DNA from: a virus
Lineage: Duplodnaviria > Heunggongvirae > Uroviricota > Caudoviricetes
Strand: one strand, 5' to 3'
DNA length: 30,163 nucleotides
Virus record (IMG/VR): IMGVR_UViG_2526164632_000040
The first letter of the stretch is position 1. Every line of letters begins with the position of its first letter. The notes beneath the pieces were generated by a model that saw only the letters and a program-made list of their open reading frames with translations, ran no database searches and was not told the origin of the DNA. Made by a program: the position numbers and the translations under genes. Positions 1,013 to 28,983 of this stretch are shown one piece after another.

Positions 1013-1765
1013 ATGAACCTTGAAGCCTTACCAAAATATTACTCCCCAAAATCTCCAAAACTGAGCGATGACGCACCGGCGACAGGCTCGGGTGGTTTAA
1101 CGATTACGGATGTGATGGCTGCGCAGGGGATGGTGCAGTCGAAAGCACCGCTTGGATTTGCCTTATTCCTGGCAAAAGTTGGTGTTCAGGATCCTCAGTT
1201 TGCGATTGAAGGTCTGCTCAATTACGCGATGGCACTGGATAATCCGACATTGAATAAATTGAGTGAAGAAACCCGGTTACAGCTCATCCCTTACCTTGTG
1301 AATTTTGCCTTTGCTGATTATTCCAGGTCTGCGGCAAGTAAGGCTCGCTGTGAGCATTGTGCTGGTACTGGATTTCATAATGTATTGCGCGAAGTGGTGA
1401 AACACTCCAGAAGCGGGGAATCTGTTATCAAGGAAGAGTGGGTGAAGGAACTATGTCAGCATTGTCATGGTAAGGGAGAAGTCAGCACAGCGTGCAGAGG
1501 GTGTAAGGGTAAAGGTATTGTCCTGGATGAAAAAAGAACCCGGCTTCATGGCACGCCTGTTTATAAGATTTGTGGGCGTTGCAATGGAAACCGGTTTAGC
1601 CGTTTGCCAACCACACTGGCGCGGCATCATGTCCAGAAGCTGGTACCAGACCTGACGGATTATCAGTGGTACAAAGGATATGCAGATGTCATTGATAAAC
1701 TGGTGACAAAGTGCTGGCAGGAAGAAGCATATGCTGAGGCGCAATTAAGAAAAGTGACGAGATAA
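1013..1765 (+). CDS. Q-type late-gene antiterminator (QuuQ/phage-82-like)
   Basis: 250 aa with several CxxC zinc-binding motifs (CEHCAG, CQHCHG, CRGCKG, CGRCNG). Sits directly after the DUF968 gene and upstream of a terminator and the lysis cassette. GGAGA Shine-Dalgarno before ATG 1013. Confidence 0.6.
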   Translation: MNLEALPKYYSPKSPKLSDDAPATGSGGLTITDVMAAQGMVQSKAPLGFALFLAKVGVQDPQFAIEGLLNYAMALDNPTLNKLSEETRLQLIPYLVNFAFADYSRSAASKARCEHCAGTGFHNVLREVVKHSRSGESVIKEEWVKELCQHCHGKGEVSTACRGCKGKGIVLDEKRTRLHGTPVYKICGRCNGNRFSRLPTTLARHHVQKLVPDLTDYQWYKGYADVIDKLVTKCWQEEAYAEAQLRKVTR

Positions 1766-1794
1766 ATGATTTTCGCCGAAGATGGCGACATGAT

Positions 1795-1872
1795 TCTTGC
1801 ATTTTTCAAAAAATCTGGTTAGGATTCTCCTAACGATGGGCTTTGCATGTCTGCCGTTAACGAAATCATAAC
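1795..1872 (+). promoter_or_regulatory. candidate Q-dependent late promoter / qut region
   Basis: TTGCAT motifs with roughly 17-nt spacing to weak -10-like hexamers (TAGGAT, TCATAA) between the Q gene and the downstream terminator. Position is typical of PR'/qut; exact promoter not resolved. Confidence 0.25.
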
Positions 1873-1904
1873 AAACCTCGCTTCGGCGGGGTTTTTGCTT
1901 TTCT
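1873..1904 (+). terminator. rho-independent terminator (tR'-like) downstream of Q
   Basis: Hairpin CCTCGC-TTCG-GCGGGG (one G.U pair) followed by TTTTTGCTTTT. Confidence 0.5.
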
Positions 1905-1956
1905 GGAGGTCAATAATGCAGGGCGAAAAGCAGCAGCCATATTTTTTAACCCTGGT

Positions 1957-2160
1957 ATGACTGTTGAACAGCTTGAAGACTGGCTGGAGCAGCAAAAGCT
2001 TCATCTAAGCCGCTATAACCGTCTGGTAAAAGAAAAAGCAGAGCTTGAAGAACGGCTCAGTGATATTTCTGTGGAAATTGAACGAATGTCTGCTGGTGGT
2101 TTTAACGGAAAGTTGAGTTTCCCTTGGGAGTCAAGTTCGCTTCTGAGAAATCATCAATAG
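1957..2160 (+). CDS. hypothetical small charged protein (67 aa)
   Basis: ORF between the tR'-like terminator and the holin gene; no clear Shine-Dalgarno. May be non-coding leader. Confidence 0.2.
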   Translation: MTVEQLEDWLEQQKLHLSRYNRLVKEKAELEERLSDISVEIERMSAGGFNGKLSFPWESSSLLRNHQ

Positions 2161-2251
2161 GGTAGTATTTGACTGAAATAATAAACAGACTGTCATTAAG
2201 ATCCCTTCCCCTCATATCTGAGAGGACCAACAGCAATTAAGAGGGGGCTAA

Positions 2252-2638
2252 ATGTCCGATCCGATTTCCGGTACTGGGCTGGCTGGTGGTGCCCTGACGG
2301 GTGCCAGTGTTTATGGACTGCTGACCGGAACTGATTACGGCGTTGTATTTGGCGCATTTGCAGGGGCTGTATTCTACATAGCAACAGCAGCAGATCTGAG
2401 TGCATCGCGCCGACTGGCATATTTTATCGTGTCATATATTGCCGGGATTCTTTGCTCTGGGTTGGTTGGCTCCAAGCTGGCGAACTTGACCGGATACAGT
2501 GATAAACCTCTGGATGCTATTGGTGCCGTAATCGTCTCTGCTTTAGCCGTTAAAATCCTGACGTTCCTGAATAATCAGGATATCGGCTCGCTGGTGGCGC
2601 TCATAACGCGCCGGGGAGGTTCAGGTGGAGCTAAATGA
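2252..2638 (+). CDS. phage holin (putative)
   Basis: 128-aa Gly/Ala-rich protein with several hydrophobic segments, first gene of the lysis cassette. Strong Shine-Dalgarno GAGGGGG before ATG 2252. Confidence 0.55.
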   Translation: MSDPISGTGLAGGALTGASVYGLLTGTDYGVVFGAFAGAVFYIATAADLSASRRLAYFIVSYIAGILCSGLVGSKLANLTGYSDKPLDAIGAVIVSALAVKILTFLNNQDIGSLVALITRRGGSGGAK

Positions 2639-2906
2639 CCCGACAGCAACTATAAATGCGCTGTTATGTGCTTGTGTTGTTATTACTCTGATGTTTTATC
2701 GTCGTGGTGATTCGCGGCATCGTCCTTGGGTTTCACGTTTAGCCTGGCTGATTACTGTTACATACAGTGCTGTTCCGTTGGCCTATCTCTGTGGGATTTA
2801 TCCTCATTCCTCATGGCCCATTATCGTGGCGAACACTATTTTTCTTTCCGTGCTGGTGGCCGTCAGAGGCAACGTTGCACGTCTGGTTGATCATCTGAGG
2901 CACTAA
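2625..2906 (+). CDS. small membrane protein of lysis cassette (holin/antiholin-like)
   Basis: 93 aa with three predicted transmembrane stretches. GTG start overlaps the holin 3' end, and its stop overlaps the endolysin start. Confidence 0.35.
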   Translation: MELNDPTATINALLCACVVITLMFYRRGDSRHRPWVSRLAWLITVTYSAVPLAYLCGIYPHSSWPIIVANTIFLSVLVAVRGNVARLVDHLRH

Positions 2907-3520
2907 TGAACCAACAATTATTTCAAAAGGCGGCTGGTATTAGCGCCGGGCTGGCTGCGCGCTGGTTTCCGCACATTGATGCGGCGATGAAGGAATTCGG
3001 CATTACAGCACCAGCGGATCAGGCAATGTTTATTGCTCAGGTAGGCCATGAGTCGATGGGGTTTAGCGCCGTAGTTGAAAATTTTAACTACACACCATCT
3101 GCGCTTGTGGCGACGTTCGGAAAGAGGATCACACAGCAGCAGGCTGATGCCCTTGGCAGAACATCCGGACATGCAGCTCGTCAGGATGCTATTGCCAATC
3201 TTGTGTATAGCAACCGGCTGGGTAACAAAGCACCCGGTGATGGCTGGAAATATCGCGGTAGAGGATTAATTCAAATCACTGGCCTCCATAATTATCGCAT
3301 CTGTGGCGCGGCGCTGAAGTTAGATCTGGTGACTTCACCTGAACAACTGGAGCAGGATCTACAGGCCGCGCGCTCAGCTGCATGGTTCTACACATCTAAA
3401 GGCTGCATGGTCTACGGTGCCGATATTAATCGTGTTACGCGCATCATTAACGGCGGTCTGAACGGTATTGAGGATCGTAAGATTCGATACAACAAGGCGC
3501 GGGCGGCGCTGCTGGTATGA
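2906..3520 (+). CDS. endolysin, glycoside hydrolase family 19 (chitinase-like lysozyme)
   Basis: 204 aa with GH19-type motifs (FIAQVGHES, YRGRGLIQITG, INGGLNG). Lies between holin and Rz. Confidence 0.7.
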   Translation: MNQQLFQKAAGISAGLAARWFPHIDAAMKEFGITAPADQAMFIAQVGHESMGFSAVVENFNYTPSALVATFGKRITQQQADALGRTSGHAARQDAIANLVYSNRLGNKAPGDGWKYRGRGLIQITGLHNYRICGAALKLDLVTSPEQLEQDLQAARSAAWFYTSKGCMVYGADINRVTRIINGGLNGIEDRKIRYNKARAALLV

Positions 3521-14457: not shown

Positions 14458-14813
14458 TGGCCCGTATCGGGGGAACCTGTTATTTCAAAATTGACGGTCA
14501 GCAGCTATCGCTGACCGGCGGCATTGAGGTGCCCATGAACAGGACGGTCAATGATGACATCATCGGCCTGGACGGTTCAGTGGACCGCAAGGAAACTCAC
14601 CGTGCGCCTTATGTCAAAGGGACCTTCAAGGTGCCGAAGAATTTTCCGGTGAGCAAAATCACCTCGTCTGATGAGATGACAATCACTGCCGAGCTGGCGA
14701 ACGGTCAGGTCTATGTATTGTCGTCAGCCTGGCTGCACGGCGAAGCGAACCATAATGCCGAAGAAGGTACGGTTGATCTTGAGTTCCACGGTGAAGAAGG
14801 GGATTACCAGTGA
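14457..14813 (+). CDS. tail tube protein (Mu gpM-like)
   Basis: 118 aa immediately after the sheath gene with start/stop overlap. Confidence 0.65.
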   Translation: MARIGGTCYFKIDGQQLSLTGGIEVPMNRTVNDDIIGLDGSVDRKETHRAPYVKGTFKVPKNFPVSKITSSDEMTITAELANGQVYVLSSAWLHGEANHNAEEGTVDLEFHGEEGDYQ

Positions 14814-15133
14814 TTGAGCTTGTACTTAAAAAACCGATCATCGCCCACAAAGAAACACTGCATGTGCTGGAAATACGTGAGCCTACGTATGACGAGATTG
14901 AGGCGCTGGGGTTCCCTTTCTCTGTTTCGCCTGATGGTGGTATGAAAATGGACAGTCAGGTAGCGCTGAAATATATCCCGCTTCTGGCCGGGATCCCGCG
15001 CTCGTCTGCAGCGCAGATGACGAAGCTGGATATTTTTAAGGCAGGCATGATTGTAATGCGTTTTTTTACCGGCTTGGAGACGGAAGAGACCTCCGGAAGC
15101 GATTCTACAATGTCGCGTGGTTCTGGAAATTAA
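14810..15133 (+). CDS. tail assembly chaperone (putative)
   Basis: 107 aa, acidic C-terminus, between tube and tape measure genes. Confidence 0.4.
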   Translation: MIELVLKKPIIAHKETLHVLEIREPTYDEIEALGFPFSVSPDGGMKMDSQVALKYIPLLAGIPRSSAAQMTKLDIFKAGMIVMRFFTGLETEETSGSDSTMSRGSGN

Positions 15134-15217
15134 ACCCCCTTGAACTTCGCCGGACGGCTATTTCCCACTTTGCTGATCTGGAGGCAGAGGCCGTCCGTAT
15201 AAATGAGGAGATGAAGC

Positions 15218-16229
15218 ATGGCTGATAATTTTCAGCTTAAAGCCATCATCACCGCCGTTGACAGGCTATCCGGCCCGCTTAAAGGTATGCAGCGTCAGCT
15301 TAAGGGGTTTCAGAAAGAAGTCTCCAGCCTTGCTCTGGGCGCTGCCGGGGCGGGTACTGCAATAATGGGGGCACTGGCACTCCCTGTAAAATCAGCCATC
15401 ACCCTTGAATCGAAGATGGCTGATGTCCGCAAAGTGGTGAACGGTCTGGATACGCCGGATGCGTTTAAGGCCATGACGGAGCAGGTACGCGCTTTGTCTA
15501 CTGAGCTTCCCATGTCTGCAGACGGGATCGCGGAAATTGTGGCGGCTGGCGGTCAGGCCGGGATTGCACGTGATGAACTGATGCAGTTTGCCACTGATGC
15601 GGTGAAGATGGGCGTGGCCTTTGATACCACGGCTGAAGAGTCCGGGCAGATGATGGCCCAGTGGCGTACTGCGTTTAATATGACGCAGGATGAAGTGGCC
15701 GGGCTGGCTGACAAAATCAACTACCTTGGTAATACCGGCCCGGCGAATGCGAAGAAAATCTCCGATATTGTTACGCGTATTGGTCCTTTAGGTGGTGTTG
15801 CAGGTGTGGCTTCCGGCGAAATCGCGGCAATGGGGGCAACCATTGCCGGGATGGGCGTGGAGTCAGAAATTGCCGCCACAGGGATCAAGAACTTCATGCT
15901 TTCCCTGACCGCGGGAAATTCCGCGACAAAATCGCAGAAACAGGCATTACGTTTTCTGCGGATCAATCCGAAGAAATTAGCTGCTGATATGCAGAAAGAT
16001 GCCCGGGGAACCATGCTGTCTGTACTGGATGCGATGGCTAAAGTGCCTAAAGAAAAACAGGCAGCTGTGCTGAATGCCCTGTTCGGGAAAGAGTCTCTGG
16101 GCGCGATAGCACCTCTGCTGACTAACCTTGATTTGTTGCGTACCAACTTCAGGCGGGTTGCGGATTCCCAGCAGTATGGCAGTTCGATGCAGAAGGAATA
16201 TGCTTCGAGGGCAGCGACGACGGAAAACC
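15218..16229 (+). pseudogene. tail tape measure protein, N-terminal fragment (interrupted by IS66-family element)
   Basis: Ala/Gly-rich helical protein with GAGGAG Shine-Dalgarno. The reading frame runs into the IS end at 16230. Confidence 0.7.
16222..16229. repeat. 8-bp target-site duplication GGAAAACC (left copy) of IS66 copy 1
   Basis: Identical 8-mer GGAAAACC lies directly outside both IS ends (16222-16229 and 18934-18941). Confidence 0.8.
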
Positions 16230-16259
16230 GTAAGCGGCTCGCCAGAACCGTATTGATAT

Positions 16260-17831
16260 TTACTGAGAGGTCAGATCAACTTTCCAGGGCAACAGATCGC
16301 GTACCCGGTTTGCCGGCCAATCCTGGATATGCTCAATGACGTAACGCAGCCATTTTTCTGGTTCCACATTGTTCAGACGGCATGTGCCGATCAGCGAGTA
16401 CAACACCGCCGCATGTTCGCCACCGCTGTCGGAACCCGCGAACAGCCAGTTTTTCCGGCCTACGGCCACTCCCCGTAAGGCGTTCTCTGCGATGTTGTTG
16501 TCGATTTCCACCCAGCCATTACTGCAGTACACGTTCAGGCCATCCCACTGTTTCAGCAGGTATGCGAACGCTTTTGCCGTATCCGAGTGACGCGACAGTG
16601 TTTTCATCTGAGTCTGTATCCAGTCATACAGTGACTGCATCAGTGGCGCAGCTCTGGCTTTTCTTGCCGCCAGACGCTGTTCTGCTGTACATCCCCGGAC
16701 TTCTGCCTCTATGGCATACAGTTCACCGATACGCTGCAGGGCTTCCGTGGTGATGTCGGTGGGCACTCTTGCATGCACATCGTGGATTTTTCTCCGGGCA
16801 TGAGCCATACACGCGGCTTCCGTTATTCTGCCGGATTCGTATAACACCCGGTAACCACCGTAAGCATCGGCCTGAAGCACACCGCTGTAACCGGCCAGAT
16901 GATTTTGTGGATGGATACCTTTCCGGTCCGGTGAGTACGCGAACCAGACCGCCGGGGGCATTTCCGAACCGGCGTTACGGTCATCACGGACGTAGACCCA
17001 CAGCCGGGCGGTCCGGGTTTTACCGCTGCCCGGCTCCTGGACCGGGACGGGGATATCATCAGCATGGACTTTACCGGGCATCAGCACATACTGGCGCAGG
17101 ACGTCATACAGCGGCTCCAGCAGTTCAGCAACGGCACCTGTCCAGCGCCCCAGCGTGGCGCGGCTCAGCTCCACGCCCTGGCGACGGTATATTTCTGACT
17201 GGCGGTATAACGGCAGATGGTCTGCATATTTCCCGGTAACAACATGGGCCAGAAGCCCCGCTCCGGCATAACTGCGTGCAATGGGTTTTGAAGGTACTGT
17301 TGCCTGCACGATATGGTCGCACCGACAACAGGCCAGTTTCGGACGTTGTGTTTCGATAACCTTAAAGGCGCTGCTGATAAGCTCCAGTTGCTCTGACACA
17401 TCACACCCCAGAGGACTGAGGTCACCACCACAGGCCGGGCAGCATTCCTCTTCCGGCCGGATGACCCGGGTTTCACGGGGAAGTGAGGCCGGTAACGGTT
17501 TACGGGCTGAAGACTGGCGCAGGGCGGATGGCAGTACCGGGTCATATTGCTCACCCAGCGTTTCCGCCATTTCTTCCTGAAGTGCGCTGATTCGCTCCTG
17601 TGCTTCCTGTATCTGCCGTTCGGTTTTAGCGCGAAGTTTTTCTGAGCTTTTACCGAACTGCATGCGCTGCAGTTTCGCAACCAGCGCCTTCAGCCGGTTG
17701 ATTTCGGAAGCATAAGCCGCCACCCGCTGTGAGAGCAGGCGGTTGTATTTCGCCATCTGGCGGATGGTGTCCTGTTGCGTCTGCAACAGTGCCCGCAGGC
17801 GGGCATTCTCATGAGCAAGTGAGGTGTCCAT
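16260..17831 (-). CDS. tnpC: IS66-family transposase TnpC
   Basis: 523 aa with N-terminal coiled coil, CxxC...CxxC zinc-finger motif (CCPACGG...CCRCDH) and a large catalytic region. Confidence 0.8.
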
Positions 17832-17850
17832 ATCCTCACTTTACAACGGG

Positions 17851-18198
17851 TTATATGCGGATGCCAGCGCGTTCCGTTCGTTTCGGGTGCTTCCAGTCGA
17901 TGCCTTCGAGAAGCATGGACAACTGAGCCGGAGTAAGGTGAACCTTTCCATCGCGGGTGACCGGCCAGACGAAGCGGCCCCGCTCCAGGCGTTTGGTGAA
18001 GAGGCACAGTCCGTCACTGTCAGCCCACAACACTTTTATCTGGTCACCCCGGCGTCCGCGGAAGATGAACAGGTGTCCGGAGAACGGGTCATCCTTCAGG
18101 ACGTTCTGAACTTTTGAGGCCAGGCCGTTAAAGCCATTTCGCATATCGGTGATACCGGCAACCAGCCAGATACGCGAACCGGCAGGGAGAGATATCAT
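17851..18198 (-). CDS. tnpB: IS66-family accessory protein TnpB (Orf2)
   Basis: 115 aa with the motif LVAGITDMRNGFNGLA characteristic of IS66 Orf2 as recalled. Confidence 0.8.
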   Translation of the reverse strand: MISLPAGSRIWLVAGITDMRNGFNGLASKVQNVLKDDPFSGHLFIFRGRRGDQIKVLWADSDGLCLFTKRLERGRFVWPVTRDGKVHLTPAQLSMLLEGIDWKHPKRTERAGIRI

Positions 18199-18848
18199 CA
18201 GTGGCTGCTCCCTTTCATTTCGCGGATAAGTGTCTGTAATAACGCCGGTGTCAGTTCACCTTTCAGCCTGAGAGTTCCGGCCGGCAGAACCAGCTCGCAG
18301 CACAGACTGTCTGGCAGTGTATTTATCTGTTCAGGTATCTGCACTGGTGCCGGGATTTTATTATCCGGCTCCGGAGTTAACGTCACGGGAAGTAGCGATG
18401 TTTCATGTTCGCCGGGCGGTTGCAGGCCACCGTTACGCCAGAGATGCCGCCAGTTAAAGAGCAGGTTATCGTTAATTCCATTCTCTCGAGCTATTTGTGC
18501 GACACAGGCACCGGGTAAAAGAGTTTGCTGAACCAGTCTCCATTTAAACTCCGGTGAAAATCGGTTCCGGCGGGGTTTCTCTGCTTTCACAGGCTGAGTC
18601 ACGGTCGGGGCTGAAGGGTATCGCCCCGGGAAAAGAGCCCGGGCCAGTTGCCCGCAGGAATATTCACCGGAAAGAGGCCAGTCAGTGAATACCTGGTGAA
18701 ATCGCCTCACCAGAGAAAAAATGGCGGTTTTGCTGACACCAGTCTGCGCAGAAATGCGCGGGTACGACAGTGACTCGTCAAATCTCAGCTGTAGCACACG
18801 CAGGATCAATTCTGGATTATCTGCCAGTACCGCTTTTCGTGCATTCAT
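18198..18848 (-). CDS. tnpA: IS66-family accessory protein TnpA (Orf1), HTH-containing
   Basis: 216 aa. First ORF of the IS; its stop overlaps the tnpB start. Confidence 0.7.
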   Translation of the reverse strand: MNARKAVLADNPELILRVLQLRFDESLSYPRISAQTGVSKTAIFSLVRRFHQVFTDWPLSGEYSCGQLARALFPGRYPSAPTVTQPVKAEKPRRNRFSPEFKWRLVQQTLLPGACVAQIARENGINDNLLFNWRHLWRNGGLQPPGEHETSLLPVTLTPEPDNKIPAPVQIPEQINTLPDSLCCELVLPAGTLRLKGELTPALLQTLIREMKGSSH

Positions 18849-18933
18849 CTTAAATGTCCTTTTACTGCGAAAATGGACATTAGTATCGGAAACAGGAAAG
18901 GGAGGCGAAAGACGGTTTAAATGATGCGCTTAC

Positions 18934-18941
18934 GGAAAACC
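18934..18941. repeat. 8-bp target-site duplication GGAAAACC (right copy) of IS66 copy 1
   Basis: Direct repeat of 16222-16229. Confidence 0.8.
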
Positions 18942-19831
18942 AGCTTTTACTTCTGCAAAATCAACTTGATGCCATTTCTTCCACTCTGGGGGAAACGTTT
19001 CTTCCTGAGGTTAATGATGGTCTTGAAGCGGTAAAACCGCTCCTTGAGGAAGTGAGAACGTTTGTCCGTGAAAACCCGGAGCTCGTTAAGACCATTGCTA
19101 AAATCGGTCTGGCTTTACTGACAGTGGGGGCCGCTGCAGGCTCTTTGTCCAGAATCATGAAAGTTCTCGGCGGTGTGATGAATATGACGCCTGCTAAGGG
19201 GCTGATTGCTCTTCTGGTTGGTGGCGCTTACCTCATTATTGATAATTGGGAAACCGTAGGTCCTGTCATAAAAAAAGTCTGGCACGTGGTGGATGAAACG
19301 GCGCAGGCGATGGGGGGATGGGAAACTGTTCTGAAAGCGATTGCCCTGTTTATGGCAACCAAATGGGTTGCTGACGTTACCAAATCCATTACCGCAGTGA
19401 CCAGAGAGATGCGTACGCTGGGGAAGGTATCGGCAGAAACGGGATTGATGGGGAAAGGCCGCGGCTTTATCGGGAAGGCCGGGGTATATGGTTTTCTGGG
19501 AACCCTGATGTATGAGCCGGTTAAAGATACTTTGGAAAGTGTTGTTCCTGAAGATACGGTTAACTGGCTGGATAATAAAGGGCTGTTTCTGGCTTCAGAC
19601 TGGACGCCTTTTTTTGATCGTAAAGAGTACGAGCAGTATCAGGCCAGCCTGAGTCAGTACAAACCCAATGTTCCGCTGTTGAATCCATCTTCTTCCATGA
19701 CACAGCACAGCGAGCTGAAAGTCACGTTCGAGAATGCTCCGCCAGGTATGAAGATAATTGATGTACCGGGCAAAGCCGATCCCCTGATGAAAATCACGCA
19801 CGATGTGGGGTATTCTCCATTCAGACGATAA
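18942..19831 (+). pseudogene. tail tape measure protein, C-terminal fragment
   Basis: Frame is open from 18944 to the stop at 19829-19831. It is in phase with the N-terminal fragment once the IS and one duplication copy are removed (junction codon C16229+AG18942-18943 = CAG). Hydrophobic/Gly-rich sequence typical of tape measure proteins. Confidence 0.7.
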
Positions 19832-19895
19832 TATAACTACTTTAATCAAGTAGGGTTATTGAGTGGTAAAGTTTGTGCTGAATGTAGGAGAGAAT

Positions 19896-20383
19896 ATGAA
19901 GAAAATGTTTATATTGTTGTTGGCTGTAGGACTGCCATTAAACTCCTTTGCGAAGCCAGTAACGGAAAAGCAGCTTGCTACATACTTTATAGATAACGTT
20001 AAAACTTCAGCGGATAAGAATATAGATCTAGATGTAGAGGGAATAAATAGACTGTCTGTAATATGCCCAGCAAAGTCGGCAAGTGGAACTCTTTTAATAA
20101 AAAAGCATCCTACGAGTTTAATAAAAGCATTGGTGCTTTTGATTTTGAAAATAACTCACAATCTGCACCATTGACTTTTATTGTACCAATTAGTGAGGAT
20201 GAAAATAACTTTGACTCGGAAATTATTGGTTTCTCTTTTGCATTTAAAATGCCAAGAGGGCAATTCTTTGTTGATGTTACGAAAACAGGGAAGGTAAAGG
20301 CTGGCGTAAATATTAGTGGTGAAAGCGGAATTACTTATTCATCATGTAGAATAGATACTCATAATGTTGATTATGATCGTTAA
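19896..20383 (+). pseudogene. AT-rich cargo gene for a secreted protein, apparently frameshifted at an A6 run
   Basis: ATG 19896 with AGGAGA Shine-Dalgarno. Signal peptide MKKMFILLLAVGLPLNSFA. The frame (codon phase 0) stops at 20174 while an overlapping ORF in phase 2 runs 20051-20383. A6 run at 20099-20104 lies in the overlap. Markedly AT-rich. Confidence 0.4.
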
Positions 20384-20397
20384 TTTTATTACCTAAT

Positions 20398-20428
20398 AAA
20401 AAACCGCGTTTACACGCGGTTTTTATTT
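20398..20428 (+). terminator. rho-independent terminator after the cargo gene
   Basis: Hairpin AAACCGCG-TTTACA-CGCGGTTT followed by a T-run. Confidence 0.55.
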
Positions 20429-20439
20429 GAGGTGACGCC

Positions 20440-21813
20440 ATGGATTTTTCTCATATTTCTTCGTACCTATCCTCTGATTCTCGAAGTGGCTGGCGTGAAA
20501 AGCTACTTGAAGCATCATTTCGAGGTGTGCCGTTTAAGGTTGAAGAAGAAAGTGCGGGAACCGGTCGCCGTGTGGAAACACATGAATACCCGAACCGCGA
20601 CAAGCCCTATACCGAAGATCTGGGAAAAGTCACTTTCCGCCCGTCCATCACAGCTTATGTGGTGGGAGATGACTGCTTTGACCAGCGCGATCGCCTGATT
20701 GAAGCGCTGAATAAACCCGGTCCCGGCACGCTTGTCCACCCGACATATGGTGAGCTGAAAGTCTGTGTTGACGGGGAAGTTCGGGTCAGCACATCGAAAA
20801 GTGAAGGGCGTATTGTCCGCTTTGACCTGAAGTTTGTCGAAGCAGGAGAACTCTCTTACCCCACATCAGGTGCGGCGACGGCGCAGACGCTGATGTCATC
20901 CTGTTCTGCACTGGATGACTGCATCAGTGACAGCTTCAGCGGTTTCAGTATCGATGGTGTAGCGGATTTCGTGCAGAACGACGTTATCGGTAATGCCAGC
21001 ATAATGCTGGGGTATGTTTCTGATGCGATGAAAGTGGTGGATTCTGCCGTATCGGATGCCGCCAGGCTGTTGCAGGGGGATATCTCGGTACTTCTGCCGC
21101 CGCCATCGTCAGGCAAAAATTTCGTTGAGCAGGTGCAGAAAATGTGGCGTACCGGGAAACGCCTTTATGGTAACGCCAGCGACCTGGTCACCATGATCAA
21201 AACGCTTTCCGGTGTCAGCCTCGGCAGCGATCTGCAACCGCGCGGCGTCTGGAAAACGGACAGTAAAACCACCGCCACGGCGACGCAGCAGCGTAACGTG
21301 GTTGCCAGCACCCTTCGTACGACCGCAATCAGCGAAGCGGCGTATGCCGTCACCCGATTGCCTGCGCCAACAACTTCCGCGGTGATGCAGAATTCCGCAG
21401 TGGGGCAGGCAACAACACCCGCGCAGAGCACTGGCTGGCCTTCCGTCACGCATCCGGCACTGAACAATGCACCGGCGGTGAAAAACACGGTTGACCTGCC
21501 GACGTGGGAAGAACTGACTGACATTCGCGACACACTGAATACGGCAATTGATAAGGAGTTGTCCCGTACAACCAGCGATGCGCTGTTTCTGGCGCTGCGC
21601 CGGGTGAAAGCAGATCTGAATGCGGATATCAACACGCGCCTTGAACAGTCTGCACGGATCATTCAGCGCACACCGGATGAGGTTTTACCCGCGCTGGTGC
21701 TGGCGGCGACCTGGTTTGATAACGCGGCGCGTGACGCGGACATTATCCGGCGTAATGCCATTACGCATCCCGGCTTTGTGCCGGTGATCCCTCTGAAGGT
21801 GCCAGTGCAATGA
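20440..21813 (+). CDS. Mu gpN-like DNA circularization protein
   Basis: N-terminal motif WREKLLEASFRGVPFKVEEE...GRRVETHEYPNRDKPYTEDLG matches the conserved N domain of Mu N as recalled. Confidence 0.65.
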   Translation: MDFSHISSYLSSDSRSGWREKLLEASFRGVPFKVEEESAGTGRRVETHEYPNRDKPYTEDLGKVTFRPSITAYVVGDDCFDQRDRLIEALNKPGPGTLVHPTYGELKVCVDGEVRVSTSKSEGRIVRFDLKFVEAGELSYPTSGAATAQTLMSSCSALDDCISDSFSGFSIDGVADFVQNDVIGNASIMLGYVSDAMKVVDSAVSDAARLLQGDISVLLPPPSSGKNFVEQVQKMWRTGKRLYGNASDLVTMIKTLSGVSLGSDLQPRGVWKTDSKTTATATQQRNVVASTLRTTAISEAAYAVTRLPAPTTSAVMQNSAVGQATTPAQSTGWPSVTHPALNNAPAVKNTVDLPTWEELTDIRDTLNTAIDKELSRTTSDALFLALRRVKADLNADINTRLEQSARIIQRTPDEVLPALVLAATWFDNAARDADIIRRNAITHPGFVPVIPLKVPVQ

Positions 21814-22889
21814 ACGACAATGTCACGCTACGGGTAAATGGCCGGGAGTGGAATGGCTGGACATCGGTGCGCATCGGTGCCGGTATTGAACGGCTGGCGC
21901 GGGATTTCAGTGTGGAGATCACCCGCCAGTGGCCGGGAGATGAGGGCATCACTACGCTTCAGCCGCGCATTAAAAACGGTTCAAAAGTGGAGGTACTGAT
22001 TGGTGATGAGCTGGTGATCACCGGCTGGGTGGAGGCGACGCCCGTTCGTTACGATGCCCGTTCGGTCAGTACCGGTATTGCCGGACGCAGTCTGACGGCT
22101 GACCTGATTGACTGTGCAGCCGAACCGACACAGTTTAACGGACGCTCGCTGGTGCAGATTGCGCAGGCGCTTGCTGCGCCTTTCGGCATTGAGGTGGTGA
22201 ACAGCGGTGCGCCGTCGGGTGTTATTCCTGATGTTCAGCCTGATCACGGTGAAACGGTGATTGAGGTAATCAACAAAATACTCGGTCAGCAGCAGGCACT
22301 GGCTTACGACGACCCGCACGGCAGGCTGGTGATTGGCGGTATTGGCTCAACGCGGGCACATACTGCGCTGGTACTCGGGGAAAATATCCTTTCCTGTGAT
22401 ACGGAGAAGAGTATCCGGGAGCGGTTTTCAGTTTACCAGGTGGCGGGGCAGCGTGCCGGAAACGACGATGATTTCGGTGAGGCCACCACCACCGCGCTGC
22501 GGGCCCGCACAGAGGACGCATTTATTGCCCGTTACCGTCCGATGTATATCAGGCAGCCAGGGCAGGCTACGGGGGCAGGCTGTATTGCCCGTGCGGACTT
22601 TGAAGCCCGGCAACGGGCGGCGCGGACGGATGAAACCACCTATGTGGTGCAGGGCTGGCGACAGGGTAACGGTACGCTGTGGCAGCCCAACCAGCGGGTG
22701 ATTGTCTTCGATCCGGTCTGTGGTTTCGACAATACCGAACTGCTTGTCTCGGAAGTCACGTTTACTCAGGACCAGAATGGCACCCTGACGGAAATCCGTG
22801 TCGGCCCACCTGATGCTTATCTGCCTGAACCCGAAGCCCCCGGCGCGCGGAAAAAGAAAAAAGCCAGAGTACAGGAGGACCCGTTCTGA
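21810..22889 (+). CDS. Mu gpP-like tail/baseplate protein
   Basis: 359 aa following N with ATGA overlap; size and order as in Mu-like tails. Confidence 0.6.
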   Translation: MNDNVTLRVNGREWNGWTSVRIGAGIERLARDFSVEITRQWPGDEGITTLQPRIKNGSKVEVLIGDELVITGWVEATPVRYDARSVSTGIAGRSLTADLIDCAAEPTQFNGRSLVQIAQALAAPFGIEVVNSGAPSGVIPDVQPDHGETVIEVINKILGQQQALAYDDPHGRLVIGGIGSTRAHTALVLGENILSCDTEKSIRERFSVYQVAGQRAGNDDDFGEATTTALRARTEDAFIARYRPMYIRQPGQATGAGCIARADFEARQRAARTDETTYVVQGWRQGNGTLWQPNQRVIVFDPVCGFDNTELLVSEVTFTQDQNGTLTEIRVGPPDAYLPEPEAPGARKKKKARVQEDPF

Positions 22890-23437
22890 TGAAGGCGATT
22901 GAAACCATACAGCGACAACTCCTCGGCCTGATTGGGCGGGCCGTGGTGAAAAGCATCAGTGCCGCCACGAAATGTCAGACCGTGGATGTGTCCCTGATTG
23001 CCGGTGAACCCAAAGCCGGGGTTGAACATCTTGAACCCTACGGTTTTACCGCAAGGGCAAACAGCGGTGCGGAAGCGGTGGTGTTGTTTCCGGATGGCGA
23101 CCGTTCTCATGCGGTGGTTGTTACGGTGTCGGACCGGCGCTACCGCCTGAAAGGGCTGCAGACGGGTGAGGTGGCTGTCTATGACGATCAGGGGCAGTCC
23201 GTGACGCTGACCCGGGAGGGGATCGTGGTGGACGGTGCAGGTAAAACGATCACGTTTCGCAATTCACCTAAAGCACGTTTTGAAATGGACCTGGAAGTGA
23301 CAGGACAGGTGAAAGACCTGTGCGACTCCAGCGGCACTACCATGTCAGCGATGCGGCTTGCCTATAACGGGCATCGTCACAGAGAGAACGGTCAGGGCAG
23401 TAACACCGACAAACCTGATAAAGCGATGGAGGCATGA
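22889..23437 (+). CDS. baseplate assembly protein (Mu gp45 / gpV-like spike)
   Basis: 182 aa in conserved position; start/stop overlap with neighbours. Confidence 0.55.
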   Translation: MKAIETIQRQLLGLIGRAVVKSISAATKCQTVDVSLIAGEPKAGVEHLEPYGFTARANSGAEAVVLFPDGDRSHAVVVTVSDRRYRLKGLQTGEVAVYDDQGQSVTLTREGIVVDGAGKTITFRNSPKARFEMDLEVTGQVKDLCDSSGTTMSAMRLAYNGHRHRENGQGSNTDKPDKAMEA

Positions 23438-23862
23438 TGGAACTGTGGCTGACGGTGAACGGTAAACGCACCTGCGCCAGCGCACCGCTGGATCCGCTGA
23501 CCCGCGCCGTGGTGATTTCCCTGTTTACCTGGCGGCGGGCGGAGCCTGATAACAACGCCGACGTCCCGATGGGATGGTGGGGGGATACCTGGCCTGCGGT
23601 ACAGAATGACCGTTACGGCTCCCGACTGTGGCTGCTTCAGCGCAGCAAACTGACCAATCAGCTGGTGCAGACGGTAAGGGGGTATATCCGCGAATGCCTG
23701 CAATGGATGATTGATGACGGCGTGGTGTCCCGTATTGATCTGGATATCCGCCGCACCGGGATTAATGAGCTGGGTAACAGTATCACCCTCTGGCGTCGTG
23801 ACGGACCGGTAATGATTTCTTTTGATGATCTGTGGAGTGCGATAACGCATGGCGGACAGTGA
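23434..23862 (+). CDS. Mu gp46-like baseplate protein (gp25/gpW-like)
   Basis: 142 aa in conserved position between the gp45-like and gp47-like genes. Confidence 0.55.
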   Translation: MMELWLTVNGKRTCASAPLDPLTRAVVISLFTWRRAEPDNNADVPMGWWGDTWPAVQNDRYGSRLWLLQRSKLTNQLVQTVRGYIRECLQWMIDDGVVSRIDLDIRRTGINELGNSITLWRRDGPVMISFDDLWSAITHGGQ

Positions 23863-24907
23863 ATTTCAGCGCCCGACGCTGGCAGAAAATATCAGTATGC
23901 TCCGTAACGATTTATTCGCCAGGCTGGACGTCAGCGACACGCTCCGGCGCATGGATGAAGACGTGCGGGCAAAGGTGTATGCGGCGGCGCTGCATACGGT
24001 TTACGGGTACATCGATTATCTGGCAATGAATATGCTGCCTGACCTGTGCGATGAGTCCTGGCTGGCGCGACATGCTGCGATGAAACGGTGTCCGCGCAAG
24101 GGGGCCACGGCTGCCAGCGGGTATATGCGTTGGGAAGATGTCAGCGATGGCCTGAAGGTGACCGCCGGGAGTGTTATTCAGCGCGATGACCTGGTTCAGT
24201 ACACGGCAACTGCCGATGCAACCAGCTCCGGTGGTGTCCTGCGCGTGCCGATCGCCTGCTCAAGTGCAGGAGCGGTCGGTAACGCTGACGACGGTACGTC
24301 ATTAATCCTGGTCACGCCGGTTAATGGTCTGCCGTCTTCCGGCGTGGCAGATACCCTGACAGGCGGATTTGATACTGAAGAGCTGGAAACGTGGCGCGCC
24401 CGCGTCATTGAGCGGTATTACTGGACGCCTCAGGGCGGGGCTGACGGGGACTATGTCGTCTGGGCTAAAGAAGTGCCCGGCATTACCCGCGCATGGACAT
24501 ACCGTCACTGGATGGGAACGGGAACTGTCGGTGTGATGATTGCCGGCAGTGACCTGATTAATCCCATTCCGGAAGAATCAACGGAAACGGCGGCAAGACA
24601 ACATATCGGGCCACTGGCCCCGGTGGCAGGCTCTGATTTGTATGTGTTCAGGCCGGTGGCGCATAAAGTGGATTTTCATATCCGCGTGACGCCGGACACA
24701 CCGGAAATACGGGCTGCCATCACCGCCGAGTTGCGTTCGTTCCTGCTGCGTGATGGTTATCCGCAGGGAGAACTGAAGGTGTCGCGTATCAGTGAGGCGA
24801 TTTCCGGTGCGAACGGGGAATACAGCCATCAGTTGCTTGCACCGGTGGACAATATCTCCATTGCGAAAAACGAACTGGCGGTTCTGGGGACGATTTCATG
24901 GACGTGA
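23849..24907 (+). CDS. baseplate J-like protein (Mu gp47-like)
   Basis: 352 aa; size and order match gpJ/gp47-family baseplate wedge proteins. Confidence 0.65.
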
Positions 24908-25482
24908 CAAACGATGATTACATCCGTCTGTTGTCGGCACTGCTGCCGCCCGGTCCGGCGTGGTCAGCCAGCGATCCGGCGATTGCAGGTGCGGCACCGT
25001 CATTAACCCGTGTTCATCAGCGTGCGGATGCCCTGATGCGGGAGCTGGATCCGCGCACCACCACCGAACTGATAAACCGCTGGGAGCGTCTGTGCGGCCT
25101 GCCGGATGAATGTATTCCCGCAGGGACACAGACCCTTCGCCAGCGTCAGCAACGGCTGGATGCGAAGGTTAACCTGGCGGGCGGCATCAACGAGGATTTT
25201 TATCTTGCACAGCTTGCTGCCCTGGGCAGACCAGATGCCACCATCACGCGATACGACAAAAGCACCTTCACCTGCTCATCGGCCTGTACTGACGCGGTGA
25301 ATGCGCCGGAATGGCGGTATTACTGGCAGGTCAACATGCCAGCTGCCACCAACACCACCTGGATGACATGTGGTGATCCCTGTGATTCCGCACTGCGTAT
25401 CTGGGGCGACACCGTTGTCGAGTGTGTGCTTAACAAACTCTGCCCTTCGCATACCTACGTAATTTTTAAATATCCGGAGTAA
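24898..25482 (+). CDS. Mu gp48-like tail protein (DUF2313 / YmfQ-like)
   Basis: 194 aa, Cys-rich C-terminus, immediately upstream of the tail fiber as in the e14 prophage. Confidence 0.6.
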
Positions 25483-25485
25483 TCC

Positions 25486-26585
25486 ATGCATCGTATAGAC
25501 ACGAAAACCGCGCAGAAGGATAAGTTCGGCGCGGGTAAGAACGGTTTTACCCGTGGTAACCCCCAGACCGGCACGCCTGCCACCGTTCTGGATGATGACT
25601 ACTTTGACATGTTGCAGGAAGAACTCTGCAGCGTGGTGGAGGCATCCGGTGCCAGCCTGGAGAAGGGGCGGCACGATCAGCTTCTTACCGCGCTTCGTGC
25701 GCTGCTGTTAAGCCGCAAGAATCCGTTTGGCGATATCAAATCGGATGGCACTGTGCAAACGGCTCTCGAAAACCTGGGAATGACAGACATTCTGAATGAT
25801 AAACAGGATAAAAATGATAATCTGACATCATTGTCGAGCTTAACAGGAATACCGGATGGGCTGGCATTTTTTACAGGTGCCGGAACAATGGATATGACAG
25901 CGCTGACTCAAAATGGCAGGGAAATTTTAAGTAAAAAAACGTATCGGAAACTCTAAAATATTTAACACTTGGGGATGGAACAGGAAGGCTTTTGGGGGTT
26001 CAGGCATTTGGATCATCTGGGACTTATATCAAATCACCTGGTGTAACGAAAATTATAGTGGAAGCCGTTGGCGGAGGTGGTGCCAGTGGTAATTTGTCGG
26101 CAACTGCATCTGGTAACTGTGGTGTAAGTGCTGCCGGTTCCAACGGGGCATATGCTAAAGCATTTTTTTATCAGTCTATACCTGAATCCGTGCAAGTAAC
26201 TATTGGAAGCGGTGGTGTAGCAGGAACAGGACCAGGAGGCTCTGGAGGTGACGGCGGGAATACAAGCTTTGGTGATTTGCTTGTATGTCCGGGAGGAAGG
26301 GGATCAACTCAAGTTCAGCAGGTACCTCCATTTTCAGGGGGAAGTGCAACAGAAGCACCAATTCCTACAGGGCAAGGGATTCTGTTCCATTCAGTTTCAC
26401 GATCAAATTTATGTGGGGCACTTGGACTTGGTGATGATCAGGCGATTGGCGTTGAAAGTATAACCACTACTATGCTTGGGATATACGGTATTGGCGGGAC
26501 AGGTAAATACAATAAGGCGTCATCAGGTCCAGCGACAGGAAATAATGGAAATCAGGGATATATTCTTGTGTGGGAGTATCAGTAA
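25486..26585 (+). pseudogene. tail fiber protein: conserved N-terminal domain plus glycine-rich C-terminal domain, split by an apparent -1 frameshift at an A7 run
   Basis: N-terminal part (25486-25956) has the motif MHRIDT...[28 protein letters not shown] and ends in stop TAA 25954-25956. The glycine-rich ORF is open in the -1 frame from 25935 to 26585. A7 run at 25933-25939. GC content drops from about 25790 onward. Confidence 0.55.
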
Positions 26586-26791
26586 TGAGCGATATTTATG
26601 CAGTCGTACAAAATGGTGTCGTTACAAATCTTGTTGTATGGGATGGTAAGTCAGAGTTTAAGTCAGAAAAAGCGGATATAGTTAAATGTGTTGGAGATGT
26701 TGGTATTGGCTGGTCATATGACGGTAAAAAATTCATCAAGCCTTCCTTAAAACCAGATGTAGTTACTCCTCAAGATGAGTTAGTCAGTTAA
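26585..26791 (+). CDS. hypothetical small protein downstream of tail fiber (68 aa)
   Basis: ATG 26585 with GGGAG 8 nt upstream, overlapping the tail-fiber stop. AT-rich. Followed by a terminator. No family recognised. Confidence 0.35.
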   Translation: MSDIYAVVQNGVVTNLVVWDGKSEFKSEKADIVKCVGDVGIGWSYDGKKFIKPSLKPDVVTPQDELVS

Positions 26792-26800
26792 TTGCTAGTA

Positions 26801-26836
26801 CGCTGGAGATTTTGATAATTTCCAGCGCATTTTTCC
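26801..26836 (+). terminator. rho-independent terminator ending the tail operon
   Basis: Hairpin CGCTGGAGATT-TTGAT-AATTTCCAGCG (one mismatch) followed by CATTTTT. Confidence 0.5.
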
Positions 26837-27202
26837 TTCTGCAGTAATGGATGAAATACCGCGAGTATAATGTTTTTATGCATATGAACCGTTTAAACCA
26901 GAGGAATCCTGACGAAATTGGTTATTGCGCCGAGAGTTGTCGGAGGGGGTGATATAGGTTATCTAATGGAGTAATCATTTTAACATTAATCAGTTTCCCC
27001 ATGACATCCTCTAAACCCTATATAAACGATTTCCTGCTACTGGCATTCAAACGAAATAATTTGAAAGCAATTTAAAGAGTTATTTGTCTAATGTTGGAAG
27101 CCGCAGCCACGTCGTATGCAAGAACGTGCTGCGGCTGGCTGGCGAACTTTCGATAGTGCGAGTATTGAATGATTTCCAGCCGTTACCGATTTTACGTGTT
27201 AA

Positions 27203-27362
27203 TTAGTGAACAAACCACTCGTCAGCAGATTCCCAGGTATCTTTCAGAGTCTCCTGAACAAAAGTTTTTGCAGAATCCTTATCTGCGGTGCGTGTAACAG
27301 AAAGGCCATCGTTGCTGGTGGCTTTTACGATCACCTCTACATCGTCATAACGTTTACTGATG
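27203..27362 (-). pseudogene. dinI: dinI-like gene, C-terminal fragment (interrupted by IS66 copy 2)
   Basis: Reverse-strand translation ...[50 protein letters not shown] matches the DinI C-terminus (ETWESADDWFV) as recalled. Confidence 0.6.
27355..27362. repeat. 8-bp target-site duplication TACTGATG (left copy) of IS66 copy 2
   Basis: Identical 8-mer TACTGATG lies outside both IS ends (27355-27362 and 30067-30074). Confidence 0.8.
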
Positions 27363-27392
27363 GTAAGCGGCTCGCCAGAACCGTATTGATAT

Positions 27393-28964
27393 TTACTGAG
27401 AGGTCAGATCAACTTTCCAGGGCAACAGATCGCGTACCCGGTTTGCCGGCCAATCCTGGATATGCTCAATGACGTAACGCAGCCATTTTTCTGGTTCCAC
27501 ATTGTTCAGACGGCATGTGCCGATCAGCGAGTACAACACCGCCGCATGTTCGCCACCGCTGTCGGAACCCGCGAACAGCCAGTTTTTCCGGCCTACGGCC
27601 ACTCCCCGTAAGGCGTTCTCTGCGATGTTGTTGTCGATTTCCACCCAGCCATTACTGCAGTACACGTTCAGGCCATCCCACTGTTTCAGCAGGTATGCGA
27701 ACGCTTTTGCCGTATCCGAGTGACGCGACAGTGTTTTCATCTGAGTCTGTATCCAGTCATACAGTGACTGCATCAGTGGCGCAGCTCTGGCTTTTCTTGC
27801 CGCCAGACGCTGTTCTGCTGTACATCCCCGGACTTCTGCCTCTATGGCATACAGTTCACCGATACGCTGCAGGGCTTCCGTGGTGATGTCGGTGGGCACT
27901 CTTGCATGCACATCGTGGATTTTTCTCCGGGCATGAGCCATACACGCGGCTTCCGTTATTCTGCCGGATTCGTATAACACCCGGTAACCACCGTAAGCAT
28001 CGGCCTGAAGCACACCGCTGTAACCGGCCAGATGATTTTGTGGATGGATACCTTTCCGGTCCGGTGAGTACGCGAACCAGACCGCCGGGGGCATTTCCGA
28101 ACCGGCGTTACGGTCATCACGGACGTAGACCCACAGCCGGGCGGTCCGGGTTTTACCGCTGCCCGGCTCCTGGACCGGGACGGGGATATCATCAGCATGG
28201 ACTTTACCGGGCATCAGCACATACTGGCGCAGGACGTCATACAGCGGCTCCAGCAGTTCAGCAACGGCACCTGTCCAGCGCCCCAGCGTGGCGCGGCTCA
28301 GCTCCACGCCCTGGCGACGGTATATTTCTGACTGGCGGTATAACGGCAGATGGTCTGCATATTTCCCGGTAACAACATGGGCCAGAAGCCCCGCTCCGGC
28401 ATAACTGCGTGCAATGGGTTTTGAAGGTACTGTTGCCTGCACGATATGGTCGCACCGACAACAGGCCAGTTTCGGACGTTGTGTTTCGATAACCTTAAAG
28501 GCGCTGCTGATAAGCTCCAGTTGCTCTGACACATCACACCCCAGAGGACTGAGGTCACCACCACAGGCCGGGCAGCATTCCTCTTCCGGCCGGATGACCC
28601 GGGTTTCACGGGGAAGTGAGGCCGGTAACGGTTTACGGGCTGAAGACTGGCGCAGGGCGGATGGCAGTACCGGGTCATATTGCTCACCCAGCGTTTCCGC
28701 CATTTCTTCCTGAAGTGCGCTGATTCGCTCCTGTGCTTCCTGTATCTGCCGTTCGGTTTTAGCGCGAAGTTTTTCTGAGCTTTTACCGAACTGCATGCGC
28801 TGCAGTTTCGCAACCAGCGCCTTCAGCCGGTTGATTTCGGAAGCATAAGCCGCCACCCGCTGTGAGAGCAGGCGGTTGTATTTCGCCATCTGGCGGATGG
28901 TGTCCTGTTGCGTCTGCAACAGTGCCCGCAGGCGGGCATTCTCATGAGCAAGTGAGGTGTCCAT
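27393..28964 (-). CDS. tnpC: IS66-family transposase TnpC
   Basis: Translation identical to copy 1 TnpC (523 aa). Confidence 0.8.
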
Positions 28965-28983
28965 ATCCTCACTTTACAACGGG

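Follow-up and report, generated by a model that had tools for sequence, protein, structure and literature searches.

The tail tape measure gene of an Escherichia coli prophage is almost certainly interrupted by a recent insertion of the insertion sequence (IS) IS679 into its core, and a second, independent IS679 insertion splits a dinI-like gene of the same prophage. Both insertions lie in a 30,163-nucleotide (nt) stretch of viral DNA (IMG/VR record IMGVR_UViG_2526164632_000040; Caudoviricetes), hereafter called the window. An earlier note, made by a model from the letters of the window, had described the first of these insertions as an IS66-family element with a target duplication.

By its sequence, the window holds the late-gene half of a temperate SfIV/SfV-type myovirus prophage, which has a tail module like that of Mu and is integrated beside dusA. 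Positions 15486-30163 were 100% identical over 14,678 nt to draft contig AIHC01000087.1 (GCA_000250255.2), and position 1 of the window is the contig start; the host is an enteropathogenic E. coli (EPEC) of the O111:H2 lineage. With both IS copies removed, the window formed a single colinear block with the dusA-adjoining prophage of E. coli FDAARGOS_1059, from which it differed by three substitutions and three one-base gaps (homopolymer indels) in 24,739 nt.

Joining 15218-16229 to 18942-19831 gave 1,902 nt with 633 codons plus a stop and zero internal stops, codon 338 being rebuilt as CAG from C (16229) and AG (18942-18943). The earlier note's claim that excision restores the frame to give a protein of roughly 633 amino acids (aa) was borne out by this joined open reading frame (ORF), which read through. 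The 3' and 5' parts remain in phase because the IS plus one repeat copy amounts to 2,712 nt, a multiple of three; the two pieces are parted by stop codons within the IS.

The joined protein matched PF10145 (PhageMin_Tail; aa 88-290; 145.6 bits, cut-off 33.2), TIGR01760 (tape_meas_TP901; aa 46-399; 323 bits, cut-off 28.8), and phrog_28, the tail length tape measure family (3e-142). The uninterrupted allele that the earlier note had proposed to seek was found in FDAARGOS_1059 (NZ_CP066032; WP_000774668), where an intact gene, 100.0% identical over all 1,902 nt, is named "phage tail tape measure protein" by the Prokaryotic Genome Annotation Pipeline (PGAP); this name and the three family matches agree with the tape measure identity first assigned. 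Genes ending naturally near 16229 were also looked for: of the 215 E. coli genomes with the allele, 214 had it unbroken, and no top match ended near residue 337. Among phages, the joined gene reached 99.0% identity with Shigella phage SfIV gp13 (NC_022749) and 99.4% with its counterpart in vB_EcoM-720R4, and the 3' part by itself, which encodes hydrophobic segments at about aa 385-440, was 99.2% identical to SfIV gp13. Tape measure proteins account for about 0.15 nm of tail per residue. At that rate, 633 aa correspond to about 95 nm, against the 101-nm tail of SfIV with its 99%-identical gene. SfIV is an isolated, inducible, lysogenising myovirus with a contractile tail of 101 nm (PMC3851460).

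The interrupting element (copy 1) starts GTAAGCGGCTC and finishes GCGCTTAC. Its terminal inverted repeats (about 16230-16254 and 18909-18933) are imperfect, with matches at 17/25 positions, and both ends open GTAAGCG. The position of the element and its perfect 8-bp flanking repeat were as first described at every coordinate, and the chance of an exact 8-mer match flanking both IS ends is about 1.5e-5. Its ORFs were assigned to family with Pfam and NCBIfam models, and all three scored above the model cut-offs, in agreement with the IS66-family label: TnpC (PF03050 at 1e-103; NF033517 equivalog, 474 bits, cut-off 180; catalytic, zinc-finger, and leucine-zipper domains all found), TnpB (NF033819, 129 bits, cut-off 50), and TnpA (NF038385, 284 bits, cut-off 150). 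The genes are ordered tnpA-tnpB-tnpC on the minus strand, with the tnpA stop and the tnpB start sharing ATGA, and the copy is intact and apparently transposition-competent.

Over its full 2,704 bp, copy 1 was 99.9% identical, end to end, to copies named "IS66-like element IS679 family" by PGAP; the name IS679 was thereby taken from labelled copies in other records and not from the pB171/ISfinder reference itself. The exact ends of the mobile unit are fixed because 99.9%-identical copies lie in unrelated flanks (plasmids and chromosomes). Copies at 99% identity or more occurred in 29 of the 4,662 matching E. coli records, including FDAARGOS_1059 and O111:H2 strain 12A, whose chromosomes hold 16 and 15 IS66-type matches, respectively.

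An exact 60-nt empty tape measure site was present in six related sequences (drafts AIHA, AIHB, and AIHD; complete genomes 12A and FDAARGOS_1059; SfIV). The duplicated 8-mers of the two insertions, GGAAAACC in the tape measure gene and TACTGATG in the dinI-like gene, are each single-copy in the empty sites. The same three drafts and two complete genomes have this prophage at an identical location, where both the 633-aa tape measure protein and DinI are intact, and between sibling strains and the source strain about 16 kb of the region shows 0 to 4 substitutions. Because near-identical siblings have the empty site, the insertion postdates the split from them. To judge from these comparisons, both IS679 insertions are recent, strain-level events; the recency claimed earlier for the first is upheld by its 100.0% match to the intact allele and by the nearest siblings, which are without the insertion. 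The tape measure::IS junction was absent from all 5,426 complete E. coli genomes searched. Coordinates are given in Table 1.

Separately, the ENA metagenome scaffold ERZ28648627 holds the same prophage with the IS site empty. Its tape measure gene (1155-3058) was called as overlapping ORFs of 410 aa and 224 aa, and its DNA circularisation gene is split as well; frameshifts are likely, and these are probably assembly errors.

Table 1. Positions of the two IS679 copies, the genes that they interrupt, and associated features in the window
Feature	Position	Strand	Remarks
Frameshift 1	~1941		T7 to T6; breaks 81-aa ORF
Tail assembly chaperone, Phage_TAC_7 (PF10109)	ORF 14810-15133; region 14810-15221	+	Upstream of tape measure gene
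Tail tape measure gene, 5' part	15218-16229	+	Codons 1-337 and first base of codon 338
Left target-site duplication of copy 1, GGAAAACC	16222-16229		8 bp, perfect
IS679 copy 1 (IS66 family)	16230-18933	-	2,704 bp; three transposition genes intact
Read-through of broken tape measure frame into IS	16230-16339	+	36 foreign residues, then stop
tnpC, IS66 DDE transposase	16260-17831	-	523 aa, intact; PF03050, PF13005, PF13007, PF13817; NF033517
tnpB, IS66 accessory protein	17851-18198	-	115 aa, intact; PF05717 (TnpB_IS66); NF033819
tnpA, IS66 accessory helix-turn-helix protein	18198-18848	-	216 aa, intact; PF01527 (HTH_Tnp_1); NF038385
Right target-site duplication of copy 1, GGAAAACC	18934-18941		8 bp, perfect
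Tail tape measure gene, 3' part	18942-19831	+	Codons 338-633 and stop; same frame as 5' part
Frameshift 2	~20098		A7 to A6; breaks 162-aa signal-peptide moron; ORFs 19863-20174 and 20063-20383
Frameshift 3	~25932		A9 to A8; splits 367-aa glycine-rich tail fibre (PF21722); ORFs 25486-25956 (156 aa) and 25992-26585 (197 aa)
dinI-like gene, 3' fragment	27203-27362	-	Split by copy 2
Left duplication of copy 2, TACTGATG	27355-27362		8 bp
IS679 copy 2	27363-30066	-	2,704 bp; orientation as copy 1
Right duplication of copy 2, TACTGATG	30067-30074		8 bp
dinI-like gene, 5' fragment	30067-30163	-	Start codon is last codon of window

The second IS679 copy

The earlier note had described a single IS; its account of that element stands and is amended by a further IS679 copy that this prophage carries. 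In-silico excision of copy 2 gave an intact 82-aa DinI-like protein that matched PF06183 and reached 73 bits against NF007893, under the cut-off of 111. The dinI site was empty in 5/5 related E. coli sequences examined (AIHA, AIHB, AIHD, 12A, and FDAARGOS_1059). Copies 1 and 2 differ at 3 nt (18030, 18073, and 18076 versus 29163, 29206, and 29209), all within 47 nt of tnpB and all synonymous. Both alleles of this stretch are widespread in the IS66-family tnpB genes of E. coli, which points to distinct donor copies or to a short patch of gene conversion; as so many elements share the stretch, it does not show which allele the sibling genomes have.

Copies 1 and 2 lie 11,133 nt apart as direct repeats. 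If they recombined, 11.1 kb would be lost (the tape measure gene's 3' half, every baseplate and tail-fibre gene, and part of dinI), and one IS with unmatched flanks, GGAAAACC and TACTGATG, would be kept. This appears a likelier fate than precise excision. Two fresh IS679 insertions stand 11 kb apart in one prophage of a host genome of about 5.3 Mb; that such a pair of hits goes beyond chance, whether through local hopping, a target bias for the prophage, or selection for grounding it, strikes us as rather improbable. Under selection, virion production would be blocked, and immunity, integrase, and morons would be kept; under any of the three, the direct-repeat pair would be an intermediate caught just before recombination deletes the tail module.

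Predicted effect on tail assembly

IS679 inserted at codons 335-338, where staggered cleavage of its target, GGAAAACC, and subsequent gap repair produced the 8-bp duplication. The insertion, after residue 337, is inside the conserved tape measure core because TIGR01760 extends to aa 399. As it stands, the interrupted ORF (15218-16339) encodes 373 aa, of which 337 are tape measure residues and 36 are IS encoded, and this product is without the C-terminal 296 residues, including the hydrophobic segments.

In long-tailed phages, the tape measure protein is required: the tube polymerises on it as a scaffold, starting at the baseplate hub, and the tail takes its length from it. Since tube polymerisation and length depend on it, tails would not be assembled; this prophage has probably lost tail assembly unless complemented, and its induction would yield tailless heads. 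That infectious tailed particles are probably no longer made, as the earlier note held, is a reasonable expectation from tape measure biology. Complementation by a close paralogue is unlikely because strain 12A has one copy only of the tape measure allele. Rho-dependent polarity across the 2.6 kb of untranslated antisense IS past the stop at 16339 may also leave the baseplate genes beyond it expressed at a lower level. The tape measure gene would be restored exactly by precise excision, which should be rare; for IS elements in general, precise excision is a rare, transposase-independent slippage.

Alternative explanations

That the prophage was defective before the IS arrived, its tail-fibre and other frameshifts being real and the IS a later neutral hit, is the alternative that survives best, although we regard it as unlikely. 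If the frameshifts were real, the tail fibre would have been lost before the IS arrived. All three one-base gaps relative to FDAARGOS_1059 break an ORF. An A8 run that cuts the 367-aa tail fibre to 156 aa is found in the window and in sibling drafts, and the frameshifts at about 1941 and 20098 occur in the window alone, both of which would fit genuine lesions. However, each gap is a one-base loss in a homopolymer run of at least 7, the typical pyrosequencing undercall. The tail-fibre A8 is common to all four drafts of one project, whereas A9, with the 367-aa frame open, is found in both complete genomes, and the AIHA draft is identical to the complete 12A genome over 16,344 nt bar A8/A9, as for one strain sequenced twice. 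The site at about 20098 has A7 in the sibling drafts. An independent short-read assembly, GCA_002467565.1, carries both IS junctions, yet it is not among the contigs encoding the truncated fibre. The three frameshifts are most likely sequencing undercalls of the draft. The earlier statement that the insertion shows no secondary decay applies within the tape measure gene; neighbouring genes have these three homopolymer frameshifts, probably artefacts of sequencing.

A far less probable alternative, which the earlier note had named as a finding that would overturn its account, is an artefact of assembly: on this view the draft contig has a misplaced IS repeat in its tape measure gene. The source is a 2012-era draft with homopolymer-length errors elsewhere, and the same IS occurs twice in the window and in about 15 places in a sibling genome, such repeats being a classic source of misassembly. 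However, wrong placement of a repeat would not leave a target that occurs once in the empty site perfectly duplicated over 8 bp, and here two IS copies have two different duplications. Moreover, GCA_002467565.1 contains the left junction of the tape measure insertion and the right junction of the dinI insertion, encodes an identical 373-aa chimera and an identical 37-aa N-terminal fragment of DinI, and differs from the window by 1 substitution in 11 kb; two of its contigs each stop exactly 127 nt into the IS, the signature of repeat collapse in short-read de Bruijn assembly. Because of these independent junctions and the target duplications, misassembly is ruled out for practical purposes, and we rejected this explanation.

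Entry of both IS679 copies and the 8.4 kb between them as a single composite transposon, as near-identical direct copies bracketing a tail and baseplate gene block might suggest, deserves next to no credence and was rejected, given that no single duplication surrounds the whole IS-cargo-IS unit, that each IS has its own matching 8-bp pair with unlike outer flanks (GGAAAACC left, TACTGATG right), and that the bracketed DNA is ordinary prophage, aligned colinearly and at 99.98% identity with the corresponding part of IS-free prophages; these facts argue for two separate insertions into pre-existing prophage DNA. Later mobilisation of the IS-IS pair as a unit is possible, although its origin as a unit is rejected.

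A recent IS679 insertion in the tape measure core, with a second independent insertion in the dinI-like gene, is therefore the best explanation, and we hold it with high confidence. Several points weigh against it or its predicted effects. Neither IS copy is a simple daughter of the other, because of the 3-nt difference. The AIHA-AIHD accession series may correspond to strains DEC12A-D of the diarrhoeagenic E. coli collection, which would make the source strain DEC12C; AIHA equals strain 12A bar one homopolymer, in support of this. A scan of the IS for consensus promoters and terminators counted no more of them than expected in shuffled sequence, and terminator signals did not exceed chance. 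That tails are no longer assembled, that polarity acts, and that reversion is rare is what we infer, and a helper phage or a divergent tape measure gene beyond the window might complement the prophage in trans.

Neighbouring genes and known systems

Sheath, tube, and tail-chaperone genes precede the tape measure gene, and Mu gpN-like DNA circularisation (DNA_circ_N) and Mu gp44-48-like baseplate genes follow it. Frame analysis of the chaperone gene placed a T7 slippery run at 15061, with the -1 frame open until its overlap with the tape measure start codon; the predicted layout is the conserved G/GT-type programmed frameshift arrangement. A moron-like gene (19896-20384) lies between the tape measure and DNA circularisation genes; its intact form, of 162 aa with an N-terminal signal peptide, matched phrog_5586 (function unassigned) and had zero Pfam or NCBIfam matches. 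At the left edge of the window, two independent assemblies break in or near a DUF968 gene, one at the window start and the other at the start of NMLS01000069.1 (window position ~629), which points to a late-regulatory region upstream that recurs among the prophages of the host genome. An Rfam search of the window returned zero matches.

Annotators should treat both pieces of the tape measure gene and both pieces of dinI as IS-interrupted pseudogenes, and should not take the draft's three homopolymer frameshifts for genuine decay. For an SfIV-like phage, the source strain paired with a sibling could provide a natural tape measure knockout and its wild-type counterpart. With the before and after states both available, the prophage offers a clean, datable case of an active IS grounding a prophage.

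Like SfIV gp13 and the FDAARGOS_1059 gene, the tape measure gene of the window stands after sheath, tube, and chaperone genes and before Mu gpN-like DNA circularisation and baseplate genes. It differs from SfIV gp13 in being broken after codon 337 and in its final 16 nt, and it is followed by a 0.6-kb moron in place of the 25 nt found in SfIV. IS679 was reportedly first described, by Han and colleagues in 2001, from plasmid pB171 of EPEC O111:NM strain B171, as a 2.7-kb element making 8-bp duplications. Copy 1 resembles that element in its length of 2,704 bp, tnpA-tnpB-tnpC order, ATGA overlap, GTAAGCG termini, and 8-bp duplication. Against copies labelled IS679 family, at 99.9% identity, nothing of substance sets the window copies apart; these two differ mutually at the three synonymous tnpB positions.

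The event is nothing new in kind: structural genes broken by IS elements are commonplace in resident prophages of E. coli and Shigella, and this is routine prophage decay. IS-inactivated prophages are known in Shigella and in enterohaemorrhagic E. coli (EHEC) O157, for example with IS629 or IS600 in prophage structural genes. There, as here, an active host IS breaks an essential virion gene, and lysogeny functions and cargo stay; the present case differs in its IS family, in its prophage, and in that the intact allele is still found in sibling strains.

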